Assembly (NCBI RefSeq): GCF_050920415.1 | Contig: NZ_CP169309.1 | Reading direction: 5' to 3' (one strand) | DNA length: 64,000 nucleotides | Source of the DNA: Escherichia coli | GTDB lineage: Bacteria > Pseudomonadota > Gammaproteobacteria > Enterobacterales > Enterobacteriaceae | In this document: positions 8,667 through 46,156 of the stretch, piece after piece | Layout: every line of letters starts with the position of its first letter | Numbering within the stretch: position 1 is the stretch's first letter | The notes under the pieces: model-generated | What the model was told of the DNA's origin: nothing | The model's input: only the letters and a program-made list of their open reading frames with translations | The model's database searches: none | Program-made: the position numbers and the translations under genes

Positions 8667-9377
8667 TTACTGCCCCAAACTACTGCAATCCTGGTTTGGG
8701 TAAAATTTACCTGCCGTATCGGGCGCTAATACTTTGGTTGGCGCACCGTTATCCGGATTAGTCTCAAGCGTAAAGTGACCTTCTACTGACAGTAACACCG
8801 GTTTTTCACTGTTACCGCGCGCAGCCAGGTAGCTACGCTCCAGCTCTGCATTATTCGCTACCATGAAACGTTTTCCGGTCGCACAATCAGTAAAGGTTGC
8901 CGCATCAGCCATATAAAAATACATGCCGCGTAGAGTCATCGGCGTCACTGGCAGGCTGGATTTTGCCGGTTCCAGTGTATAGTTGAACTGCGATTCGATC
9001 GGATTGCCTTCACGATCGAGCATCTCCAACGCATCTCCTTTCGCCCGATAATATGACTTTTCACCTTTACTGTCGGTTAATACCAGTTTGTCAGCGGTTC
9101 GCGCCCATGTACCGTAGGAGGCGAAAGAGAAAGGTTCTTCACGAGCCCCCAGATAACGCTCATTCATCACCCAGGTTCCATCTTTTTCGAGGAACAGAGA
9201 GGTTTCGATACCTTCGCAATCAGCACACGGCAGCACGCCGCGCCAGCTTTGCGGCATCGGCTTCAGTTCAGCGGCCTGCGCCGGAGAAAGCGTATCGACT
9301 TCGGCTCGATTATTACATCCCATCAGAGTAAAGAGGCTGATTACAGCCATCGCTGTCACTATCGCTTTTTTCACCAT
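8667..9377 (-). CDS. nlpE: Outer-membrane lipoprotein NlpE (Cpx pathway activator)
   Basis: 236-aa ORF MVKKAIVTAMAVISLFTLMGC... with lipobox and a CxxC motif (CADC). Confidence 0.95.
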   Translation of the reverse strand: MVKKAIVTAMAVISLFTLMGCNNRAEVDTLSPAQAAELKPMPQSWRGVLPCADCEGIETSLFLEKDGTWVMNERYLGAREEPFSFASYGTWARTADKLVLTDSKGEKSYYRAKGDALEMLDREGNPIESQFNYTLEPAKSSLPVTPMTLRGMYFYMADAATFTDCATGKRFMVANNAELERSYLAARGNSEKPVLLSVEGHFTLETNPDNGAPTKVLAPDTAGKFYPNQDCSSLGQ

Positions 9378-24164: not shown

Positions 24165-24285
24165 AATAAACTCCTTACCATCCCATTTGCACCGGAGGGT
24201 GCAGTTCTTTGCGTGGCCCGGCGATCTTATATTGATCGCCTAAAGTCATCGCTACACTACCACTACATTCCTTTGTGGAGAACAC

Positions 24286-26736
<2,451 letters not shown>

Positions 26737-42302: not shown

Positions 42303-43727
42303 TTACTGCATTAACAGATAGATGGTGCTGTCGCCGCGCTGAATATTCAGTGCCAGCACAGACGGTTTGCTGTCGAGAACTTTACGCAGTTCAGCGATGT
42401 TTTTCACTGCCTGCTGGTTCGCACCAATAATCACATCACCTTTCTTCAGGCCGATCTGCGCAGCCGGAGTGCCCGTTTTCACGTTGTTCACCACCACGCC
42501 CTGATCTTTGCCTTTGTTGCTCATCTCAGCGCCTTCAATGCCGTTGAAGATGGTGCTGGAATCAACCTGATTCTGGCTGCTCTGCTGCAGTTCCAGGTTC
42601 ACGTTAACCTGCTTCCCGTCGCGCAGTAAGCCCAGGGTCAGTTTGCTGCCTACCGGCATAGTGCCCACCTGAGCACGCAGTGCGGCAAAGCTGCTGATTG
42701 GCTTACCGTTCAGTGAGGTGATCACATCACCCGCTTTAATGCCCGCTTTCGCGGCGGAAGAGTTCGGCAGAACCTGGCTTACGAAAGCACCGCGCTGGGC
42801 GTCAACTTTCATCGCTTTCGCCAGATCGGAGTTCAGCTCAGTGCCCATAATACCCAGCTCACCACGTTTCACCTGGCCGTATTCCACCATCTGCGAGGTC
42901 AGGTTTTTCACCATGTTGCTCGGGATAGCAAAACCGATACCGATGTTTCCGCCGTCCGGTGCGAGGATCGCGGTGTTGATACCAATCAGTTCGCCGTTCA
43001 GGTTAACCAGCGCGCCACCAGAGTTACCCCGGTTGATCGCAGCATCGGTCTGGATGAAGTTTTCATAGTTTTCGGCATTCAGACCGCTACGCCCCAGCGC
43101 AGAGACAATCCCGGAAGTTACCGTCTCGCCCAGACCAAACGGGTTACCAATTGCTACGGTGTAATCACCCACGCGCAGTGCATCAGAATCCGCCATCTTA
43201 ATTGCGGTCAGATTTTTCGGGTTCTGGATCTGGATCAGCGCGATATCAGAGCGCGGATCTTTGCCAACCATCTTCGCGTCGAACTTACGACCATCGCTCA
43301 GCTGGACTTTAATCACCGTCGCGTTATCAACAACGTGGTTGTTGGTGACGACATAGCCTTTATCGGCATCAATGATGACGCCGGAACCCAGCGCCATGAA
43401 TTTCTGTTGTTGGCCGCCGCCATTACCGCCCTGGCCCCCCTGGCAGAACGGAGAGCTCTGGAACGGAGAACCTTCCTGGCAGAACGGAGAATCATCACCG
43501 AAGAACTGCTGGAAATTACGCGGCATACGCGGCGTATTAACGGTTGTGCTACCTTCTACGTTAATGCTGACCACTGAAGGCATCACCTTTTCGAGCATCG
43601 GTGCAAGGCTTGGCATCTGCTGGGCTGTCGTTGCTGAAGAAGTCTCAGCCGCCGTTGCAGAGAGCGGAGATAACGCCAAACCTAAACTCAGAGCCAGTGC
43701 ACTCAGTGCTAATGTGGTTTTTTTCAT
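42303..43727 (-). CDS. degP: Periplasmic serine endoprotease DegP (HtrA)
   Basis: 474-aa ORF with signal peptide, trypsin-like domain (GNSGGAL), Q/G-rich loop and two PDZ domains. Confidence 0.97.
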   Translation of the reverse strand: MKKTTLALSALALSLGLALSPLSATAAETSSATTAQQMPSLAPMLEKVMPSVVSINVEGSTTVNTPRMPRNFQQFFGDDSPFCQEGSPFQSSPFCQGGQGGNGGGQQQKFMALGSGVIIDADKGYVVTNNHVVDNATVIKVQLSDGRKFDAKMVGKDPRSDIALIQIQNPKNLTAIKMADSDALRVGDYTVAIGNPFGLGETVTSGIVSALGRSGLNAENYENFIQTDAAINRGNSGGALVNLNGELIGINTAILAPDGGNIGIGFAIPSNMVKNLTSQMVEYGQVKRGELGIMGTELNSDLAKAMKVDAQRGAFVSQVLPNSSAAKAGIKAGDVITSLNGKPISSFAALRAQVGTMPVGSKLTLGLLRDGKQVNVNLELQQSSQNQVDSSTIFNGIEGAEMSNKGKDQGVVVNNVKTGTPAAQIGLKKGDVIIGANQQAVKNIAELRKVLDSKPSVLALNIQRGDSTIYLLMQ

Positions 43728-43772
43728 GTATTTCAGTCTCGATTAACAGATAACGCAAAATTGCTGTGTTCT

Positions 43773-43800
43773 TCAGATTCGTTTTATAGCGCGAAGTTCC
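43773..43800 (-). promoter_or_regulatory. sigmaE-type promoter of degP
   Basis: Minus-strand GGAACTT, 16-nt spacer, TCTGA, matching the sigmaE -35/-10 consensus, about 45-70 nt upstream of the degP start. Confidence 0.65.
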
Positions 43801-43856
43801 GAACTAAAGTTTCTGCAAAAGGTAAAAATTTATTGTTCGTCTTTACAAAAGCCTGG

Positions 43857-45374
43857 TTATTGTTCTACGGCCATCAGACGTCGGTATTCATCCCAGGCAT
43901 AGAGGTCGGTCATACCGCTGATATAATCCTGCAGCAGGCGGCAACGGTAATAATATTCCCATAGCGGAAACTCAGGAGAATCTGACGGTAATTTACTGAC
44001 AGCCTCGACATAGGCCAGCCGATGGCGCGTCGAGAGTTTGTGGAATAAGCGCGATTCAATAGGGAAACGTTTCACCCGTTCTTTTTCTACCAGTTCAGTA
44101 AAGTCTGATAACGACAGGCTTAATAAAGGGCGATAAATCTCTAATAATCCGCTAATGACCCGATAGCCCTGCAATTCAAGCTGCTCGACATCTGGATGGC
44201 TAAACACATGTTTTACAGCGACATTTTTATATAGCTTTAGAAGATCGCTGCATTCGCTGGCATCTTCCAATAATGCATGATTAAACGTTCCGGCGAAAAT
44301 CGCAGGCAGATTATCAATAAATCGTTGTGCTGCGTAGGGTACCAGTTTATTTAGGGTGTTTACCCGTAAATACATAAAAAACTGATCTTCCGTACTGCGG
44401 CTTAAACTATTTGAGCGTGATTTTTCCCAGGCATTTTCAACCACCAGCGAAAAGAGCGAACCTTTCTCATGCTGGCCCCACGCTTCGTGCAAATGATGAT
44501 AAAGCTGCTCAACGCTGAATATTCTTTTCTCTACCGCATCTTCAAGATCTGCCACACAATAGGAGATGTCGTCGGCAGCTTCCATAATCCACGTTAATGG
44601 AAAACGACTGTAAAGCGCCAAATTAAGTTCTTTACGCAACCGGGCAATATAAGCTTCTTCAGAAAGATAATAACCCGGCTTTTTCATTAAATAGTGATGT
44701 GTCTCAGGCGTTTCGCCACGCCACCACGCCGGACGGGTATATTTTAAAATACCGCCAACCTGTGCCCAGGTGAGATTCATCCGCATCAATGTATGCACCA
44801 GACGAATACCTTGTGCATTCCCCTCAAAATGGCATAAGTCCTGACGAATTTTGCGCCGCAGTTCGTTAAGCGGTTCTTCCCCTTCCCGTAAACGTAATGC
44901 CACCACGCAGCAGCGATCGTCAGTCAGAGGCTGGCTTTCGGCATCAGCCGGAAACAAACGCTGGCGAAACCAGTCATTTATCGCCGCTTCACCAAAATGG
45001 CCAAACGGCGGATTGCCGATATCGTGCATCAGGCATGACATCTCAACAATACTTTCAAAGGGGCCGGTCAGTTCATCCAGACCATACTCTTCCAGTAATT
45101 TAAGTTCTTTCAGACGGCTTAAAATTTCTTTGGCGATGTAGCGCCCCACCTGCTGGACTTCCATTGAATGGGTTAGACGCGTGCGCACGGCGGCATTTCG
45201 CTCCAGCGGAAAAACCTGGGTCTTTTGTTGCAGACGACGAATTGCCGGAGAGTTAATAATACGCCCGCGATCGCTCTCAAAGATTCGCAGGATCTCATGT
45301 TCGGTTTTAACGCCCTGTGGTGAACGGTAACGACGATGCCAGTTTATTTTTTTTCGGAAATCAATCTGTGCCAT
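43857..45374 (-). CDS. dgt: dGTP triphosphohydrolase
   Basis: 505-aa [24 protein letters not shown]... with HD-domain motifs. Confidence 0.96.
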
Positions 45375-45457
45375 GTCCTCTCCCGCGTGAGAAATACGCT
45401 TCCCCGTAAGCGCATGGTAAACTATGCCTTCAAATCGGGCTTATCGCGAGTAAATCT

Positions 45458-46156
45458 ATGAAAATCGGCATCATTGGTGCAATGGAAGAAGAAGTTACGC
45501 TGCTGCGTGACAAAATCGAAAACCGCCAAACTATCAGTCTGGGCGGTTGCGAAATCTATACCGGCCAACTGAATGGAACCGAAGTTGCGCTTCTGAAATC
45601 GGGCATCGGTAAAGTTGCTGCGGCACTGGGTGCAACTCTGCTGTTGGAACACTGCAAGCCAGATGTGATTATTAACACCGGTTCTGCTGGTGGCCTGGCG
45701 CCAACGCTGAAAGTGGGCGATATCGTTGTCTCGGACGAAGCACGTTATCACGACGCGGATGTCACGGCATTTGGTTACGAATACGGTCAGTTACCTGGCT
45801 GCCCGGCTGGCTTCAAAGCTGACGATAAACTGATCGCTGCCGCTGAGGCCTGCATTGCCGAACTGAATCTTAACGCTGTACGTGGCCTGATTGTCAGCGG
45901 CGACGCTTTCATCAACGGTTCTGTTGGCCTGGCGAAAATCCGCCACAACTTCCCGCAGGCCATTGCTGTAGAGATGGAAGCGACGGCAATCGCTCATGTC
46001 TGCCACAATTTCAACGTCCCGTTTGTTGTCGTACGCGCCATCTCCGACGTGGCCGATCAACAGTCTCATCTTAGCTTCGATGAGTTCCTGGCTGTTGCTG
46101 CTAAACAGTCCAGCCTGATGGTTGAGTCACTGGTGCAGAAACTGGCACATGGCTAA
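45458..46156 (+). CDS. mtn: 5'-methylthioadenosine/S-adenosylhomocysteine nucleosidase
   Basis: 232-aa [39 protein letters not shown].... Confidence 0.97.

Follow-up and report, generated by a model that had tools for sequence, protein, structure and literature searches.

The interval 43728-43856 is very probably the canonical, well-studied control region of degP (htrA) in Escherichia coli, a feature that is already known and whose accepted picture is left unchanged here. With a similarly high degree of confidence, signals are integrated in this region at two levels, transcription and translation. In the proposed mechanism, RNA polymerase carrying sigma-E would recognise GGAACTT-N16-TCTGA and initiate at A 43767, and phosphorylated CpxR would bind a conserved A/T-rich block about 55-83 bp upstream of this main start, including a degenerate GTAAA-N5-ACAAT. 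From that block CpxR would raise transcription, probably in a class-I-like manner by polymerase recruitment. Minor transcripts would be contributed by an overlapping promoter of the sigma-70 or sigma-S type (-10 TATAAA, start at G 43774) and by a weak promoter inside dgt (start 43942). Finally, the 40-nt fourU leader is predicted to mask the Shine-Dalgarno sequence at low temperature and to open at heat-shock temperature.

The motifs, the geometry, the conservation and the Rfam match come from the present analysis, and the transcription starts, the sigma-24 occupancy, the induction by Cpx and the listing of the CpxR boxes come from the literature; we infer both the holoenzyme that is assisted by CpxR and the occupancy of the pentamers. 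A previous sequence-only reading of the same interval had described a sigma-E promoter with imperfect CpxR-like half-sites upstream. Each of the facts it gave is confirmed and its interpretation is supported. That reading is incomplete rather than wrong, as the RNA thermometer, the overlapping second promoter and a better CpxR box inside dgt were left out.

The dgt-degP intergenic region

In E. coli, dgt and degP are separated by 129 bp, and the interval coincides exactly with this intergenic region; degP lies on the minus strand. The limits of the interval are set by the degP start codon (ATG, 43727-43725, minus strand) and by the dgt stop codon, which ends at 43857; read on the minus strand, the interval is CCAGGCTTTTGTAAAGACGAACAATAAATTTTTACCTTTTGCAGAAACTTTAGTTCGGAACTTCGCGCTATAAAACGAATCTGAAGAACACAGCAATTTTGCGTTATCTGTTAATCGAGACTGAAATAC, followed by the ATG. 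The degP (htrA) coding sequence (42303-43727, minus strand) encodes 474 amino acids and matches the NCBIfam DegP equivalog with 935 bits. The upstream gene on the same strand is dgt, encoding a dGTPase (43857-45374, minus strand; a 505-aa ORF matching a dGTPase equivalog), and cdaR comes after degP. The G+C content is 36% in the intergenic region and 52% in the window, by which we mean the whole 64-kb stretch of DNA that was analysed.

The window runs in reverse with respect to K-12, and a window position w is converted to an MG1655 position m by m = 224611 - w. In comparison with E. coli K-12 degPp, which is sigma-E dependent and CpxR activated, the locus, the gene order, the -35 and -10 elements, the start and the CpxR boxes are the same. 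Against MG1655 180600-181000, 398 of 401 positions are identical, and two adjacent bases of the sigma-E spacer differ. Of 5426 complete E. coli genomes, 5424 carry a single copy of the 401 bp spanning the interval, and likewise of the 129-bp interval itself, between annotated dgt and degP genes. The other two genomes have no match to the dgt-degP region, and three records labelled as plasmids carry it; these cases are probably mislabelled replicons or assembly issues.

A terminator scan detected no intrinsic-terminator-like sites between the dgt stop codon and degP (43857-43728, minus strand), and transcripts that read through from dgt, or that start inside it, can therefore extend into degP. 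A dgt terminator inside the interval was considered and rejected, the scan having returned zero sites. A protein-coding or antisense feature was also rejected; the ORFs that overlap the interval (43761-43964 and 43372-43746, both on the plus strand) are attributable to chance only. Rfam families other than RF02700, which is described below, have no match in the interval. The gene for the lipoprotein NlpE, an activator of the Cpx pathway, had been placed in the same window by the sequence-only reading, and it is indeed present at 8667-9377 on the minus strand (NCBIfam NlpE equivalog, 396 bits). It lies 34 kb from the degP control region and has no cis relation to it.

The sigma-E promoter and the additional transcription starts

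The sigma-E promoter GGAACTT-N16-TCTGA, claimed from the letters alone, is found on the minus strand at 43800-43773, with a spacing to the start that fits. The -35 element (43800-43794, minus strand; -33..-27) is an exact match to the consensus GGAACTT, and the 16-nt spacer (43793-43778, minus strand) includes an invariant TATAAA at 43788-43783. The -10 element TCTGA (43777-43773, minus strand; -10..-6) preserves three of the five positions of the TCAAA consensus, and is invariant in all 11 orthologous sequences. The composite motif GGAACTT-N15-17-TCNNA occurs only once in the 64-kb window, where 0.34 occurrences are expected from shuffled sequence. Published rules for sigma-E promoters (Rhodius, PMC1312014) specify GGAACTT, a spacer of 15-19 nt (preferably 16), TCAAA, a discriminator of 5 or 6 nt and a purine start. 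Here the -35, the 16-nt spacer, the -10 and a purine start at the appropriate distances (5-6 nt downstream of the -10 and 25-28 nt downstream of the -35) are all found.

This geometry predicts initiation at A 43767, which is 5 nt past TCTGA and 26 nt past GGAACTT, and the prediction agrees with the mapped main start, here called P3 (sigma-E type; 43767, minus strand; MG1655 180844), which gives a 40-nt 5' UTR. The start at 180844 is present in three independent genome-wide maps: that of Kim 2012 (PMC3415461), in which the 40-nt UTR is given, that of Cho 2014 (PMC3923258), in which it is seen under exponential and glutamine conditions, and the Cappable-seq map of Ettwiller 2016 (PMC4782308), in which its score is 41.6. 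All three maps thus put the start at window position 43767 and not at a different place. Binding of both sigma-24 and sigma-38 at the degP promoter was detected by ChIP-chip, and the promoter was assigned to sigma-E (Cho 2014, PMC3923258); degP is also among the active promoters of the Rhodius sigma-E promoter library.

The surroundings of these elements are conserved as well, with 11 of the 16 columns of the sigma-E spacer invariant across genera (69%). Upstream of the -35, the conserved sequence CAGAAACTT (43807-43815, minus strand; -48..-40) falls in the zone where the sigma-E promoter would have an UP element. The pattern that was used in the orthologue search includes seven of the nine bases of this sequence (43813-43807), and conservation there is not independent evidence. 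On the plus strand, CAGAAACTT belongs to a weak N6 CpxR-like match, CTAAAGTTTCTGCAAA (43804-43819), and this 16-mer appears in the PSSM scan of PMC9600279.

The window and K-12 MG1655 differ within the spacer at 43792-43791, where the window has GC and MG1655 has AG (GGAACTTCGCGC versus GGAACTTCAGGC). The window allele agrees with the other genera, in which GCG is kept, and it is the majority form in E. coli: 4034 of 5424 genomes are at least 99% identical to the interval of the window, and 1390 genomes are in the 95-99% identity band, where the K-12 allele (98.4%) falls.

A second transcription start, P2, is located at a G inside TCTGA (43774, minus strand; MG1655 180837), and corresponds to a 47-nt 5' UTR. 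This start lies 7 nt upstream of the main start; being inside the sigma-E -10 element, it needs a promoter of its own. The start at 180837 was detected in stationary phase only, with 28 reads and with sigma-38 and sigma-24 ChIP signal at the site (Cho 2014, PMC3923258). A Klebsiella pneumoniae start has been mapped to the same G (207608), and the Salmonella transcript with a 47-nt UTR is that of htrAp2 (PMC5602114). The invariant TATAAA of the sigma-E spacer is close to TATAAT and ends 8 nt before the start at 43774, which makes it a candidate -10 hexamer of an overlapping promoter of the sigma-70 or sigma-S type. It is preceded by a C, and a C directly before the -10 hexamer is a sigma-S-like feature. 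No -35 element near TTGACA was found 16-18 nt upstream (AACTTT, AAACTT and ACTTTA match at no more than one of six positions), and a consensus promoter scan gave no minus-strand promoter at P2.

The third start belongs to a candidate promoter inside dgt, P1 (43942-43955, minus strand), which combines a -10-like TATTAT at 43955-43950 with a weak start at G 43942 and a 215-nt 5' UTR. This position was predicted from the 215-nt UTR of Salmonella htrAp1 before the Cappable-seq data were looked up, and the weak Cappable-seq start at MG1655 180669 (window 43942; score 1.8, PMC4782308) agrees with it exactly. There is no recognisable -35 for P1, the sequence at that place being CTCCTG.

E. coli degP is usually described with a single promoter. 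Three promoters, htrAp1, htrAp2 and htrAp3, are described for Salmonella Typhimurium htrA (Lewis 2009, as summarised in PMC5602114), and the Salmonella 5' UTRs of 40, 47 and 215 nt correspond exactly to the E. coli starts at 180844, 180837 and 180669. The intergenic length and the motifs are also the same in Salmonella htrA and in E. coli. Unlike the named Salmonella promoters, the extra E. coli starts (180837 and 180669) are weak and come from genome-wide maps only.

The CpxR boxes and the promoters they may serve

The GTAAA-like pentamers that had been described upstream on the minus strand as a partial match to the CpxR consensus are represented by GTAAAGACGAACAATAAA at 43846-43829 (minus strand). 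It has three mismatches to GTAAA-N5-GTAAA, with a first pentamer that matches at five of five positions and a second (ACAAT) that matches at two of five, and the word "degenerate" used in that description is accurate. GTAAA-N5-GTAAA sites with two or fewer mismatches are absent from the intergenic region. The 15-mer GTAAAGACGAACAAT, inside GTAAAGACGAACAATAAA, appears under the name "degP1 (htrA)" among the 41 known CpxR sites compiled in PMC9600279 Table S1, where it is attributed to De Wulf 2002; the listed site falls within the sequence already quoted and not elsewhere. The degP1 box, GTAAA-gacga-ACAAT, occupies 43832-43846 (minus strand), or -79..-65 from the main start. A full-text literature search for GTAAAGACGAACAAT found only a knockout primer.

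A CpxR position weight matrix was made from 38 compiled published boxes, with the three sites that lie in this window left out. It gives degP1 a score of 6.4 bits, versus a median of 13.8 for the known sites, and 162 positions in the window score at least as high as degP1; the motif match alone is at chance level. Compared with the consensus CpxR boxes of cpxP (GTAAAACAACGTAAA) and ppiA (GTAAAATTAGGTAAA), degP1 likewise has a perfect 5' GTAAA, a 5-bp spacer and a position less than 100 bp upstream of the start. It differs from them in this low score, in the second half-site ACAAT and in the presence of a third pentamer, TTTAC, which is inverted and lies 5 bp beyond the second half-site.

The published skp CpxR box, GTAAAACCTGGTAAG at 24285-24299 (minus strand), served as a positive control for the matrix, and at 14.3 bits is the third best match in the window. 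The top match of the whole window is GTAAATCTATGAAAA (45450-45464, plus strand; 16.7 bits), in the divergent dgt / mtn-btuF intergenic region; this sequence is a candidate in the genome scan of PMC9600279 and is absent from the known sites given there. With two or fewer mismatches, GTAAA-N5-GTAAA occurs 75 times in the window versus 45 expected, and none of 100 dinucleotide shuffles reaches 75. Because most of these matches fall in coding sequence, the excess is probably an effect of codon usage rather than of CpxR sites.

As a putative CpxR site, degP1 is supported by conservation instead of by motif score. It belongs to a conserved upstream block of 29 bp, TTTTGTAAAGacGaACAATAaaTTTTTAC (also given as TTTTGTAAAGnnGnACAATAnnTTTTTAC), at 43822-43850 on the minus strand (-83..-55). 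This block contains three pentamers in 10-bp phase (GTAAA at 43846-43842, ACAAT at 43836-43832 and TTTAC at 43826-43822), of which the outer two form an inverted pair. In total, 24 of its 29 columns are invariant (83%), versus 22% at dgt third-codon positions; the three pentamers are what is invariant, and the first N5 (gacga) varies. The half-site pentamers of degP1, within 100 bp upstream of the main start, are thus conserved beyond the dgt third-codon rate. Seven non-redundant sequences were aligned (the window, E. albertii, Salmonella arizonae, two Citrobacter, Klebsiella pneumoniae and Pluralibacter), and the five genera compared are Escherichia, Salmonella, Citrobacter, Klebsiella and Pluralibacter. 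Orthologues were retrieved by scanning genome contigs with the pattern GAAACTT-N3-T-N-CGGAACTT, which returned 118 loci, 10 of them enterobacterial degP and the rest chance matches. The block at 43850-43822 lies outside this pattern, and conservation inside the pattern was not counted as evidence.

A second CpxR box, degP2 (GTAAATTACCGTCAG), is found inside the dgt ORF at 43982-43996 (minus strand), at -54..-40 from the weak start 43942 and outside the interval 43728-43856. The same compilation (PMC9600279 Table S1) includes degP2 among its known CpxR sites, again with De Wulf 2002 as the source. With two mismatches to GTAAA-N5-GTAAA and a score of 12.2 bits, the sixth best in the window, it is a better match than degP1. 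Its second half is GTCAG in Escherichia and CACGG in S. Typhimurium.

Expression data bear on the role of CpxR at this locus, as degP mRNA was 32-fold up on NlpE overproduction, and only 6.4-fold up without cpxR (PMC9600279 Table 1). In a CpxR ChIP-exo study, degP was neither among the direct targets nor in the CpxR iModulon, whereas RegulonDB does list degP (PMC7657598).

In the mechanism favoured here, CpxR bound at the block would assist at the sigma-E promoter. It is possible, but rather unlikely, that CpxR~P acts not with sigma-E polymerase but on the sigma-70/sigma-S promoter P2, and possibly on P1 via degP2, these being separate promoters on shared DNA. Three genera share the P2 start, and its distance from the invariant TATAAA, which lies in a sigma-E spacer that is normally free to vary, is constant. 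Both P2 and P1 are devoid of a recognisable -35, a feature to be expected of activator-dependent promoters. The position of degP2 relative to the Cappable-seq start 180669 would suit such a scheme, as would the sigma-38 ChIP signal at P2 and the detection of that start in stationary phase only. Cpx-mediated degP transcription is also said, in the abstract of Danese 1995, to be only partly dependent on sigma-E polymerase, and this was counted in favour of separate promoters. However, P2 and P1 are weak, with 28 reads and a Cappable-seq score of 1.8, respectively, versus the 41.6 of the main start. Conservation of degP2 does not extend to its second half in Salmonella, the organism in which htrAp1 was originally described, and reported as constitutive (PMC5602114). 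The degP1 box, at -72..-58 from P2, suits class-I activation of either promoter equally. It is likewise doubtful, although conceivable, that E. coli degP shares the three-promoter layout of Salmonella htrA with Cpx control exerted largely via the two promoters that have no -35. In that case, the GTAAA-N5-ACAAT-N5-TTTAC block may serve P2 (43774) and degP2 may serve P1 (43942) from -54..-40, and the sigma-E and Cpx inputs would be physically separate on overlapping DNA. The original genetics of 1995 reportedly left open which holoenzyme the Cpx system assists at degP. E. coli counterparts of the htrAp1 and htrAp2 starts of Salmonella are already present in public start-site maps, aligned with the invariant TATAAA and the second CpxR box, and these starts offer a handle on that holoenzyme.

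The conserved block itself might also be read differently, and part of it may function as an UP element instead of contacting CpxR. It is far less probable that the GTAAA-like pentamers are altogether incidental, with the block at -83..-55 bound by the alpha C-terminal domain as an UP element, or by some other protein, and with Cpx acting indirectly or through degP2 only. Such an explanation would accommodate the chance-level matrix score of degP1, the A/T-rich UP sequences that are common at sigma-E promoters, with peaks near -48/-49 and -57/-58 (PMC1312014), and the ChIP-exo study in which degP was not reported as a direct CpxR target (PMC7657598). However, the invariant columns are pentamers 10 bp apart, separated by an N5 (gacga) that varies, an arrangement characteristic of a phased protein site and not of a generic A/T tract, and the block reaches -83, past the usual UP zone. 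CpxR~P was reportedly footprinted upstream of degP by Pogliano and colleagues in 1997. Moreover, the De Wulf 2002 compilation (via PMC9600279) includes the sequence among its known CpxR sites.

The fourU leader of degP

The 5' UTR of degP matches the HtrA fourU RNA thermometer family (43722-43767, minus strand; Rfam RF02700, 77 bits versus a gathering score of 52). The whole model (positions 1-46 of 46) is covered, and the first matched base coincides with the mapped start, 43767. The UUUU at 43760-43757 pairs with the Shine-Dalgarno GAGA at 43740-43737, and the minimum free energy fold of the leader is the same hairpin, which is weak at -3 kcal/mol with a z of +0.69. RNA thermometer hairpins are typically weak. 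Across six distinct sequences 87% of cells pair and there are no compensatory changes. Neither the RNAalifold consensus nor the pair count gives covariation support for the leader hairpin in these six sequences, and RNAalifold prefers other small hairpins. The assignment of the leader as a probable thermometer is supported by the Rfam match together with SHAPE and reporter work on the Salmonella htrA thermometer, in which translation is temperature-dependent (PMC5602114).

Like RF02700, which it matches over the full length, the degP leader has a bulged C, a 5-nt loop and a UUUU that faces the Shine-Dalgarno sequence. At 43761/43736, the Escherichia leader carries A.C, a mismatch that weakens the lower stem, in place of the A-U pair of Salmonella, Citrobacter and Klebsiella. 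In Klebsiella, Pluralibacter and one Citrobacter, the UUUU is replaced by CUUU.
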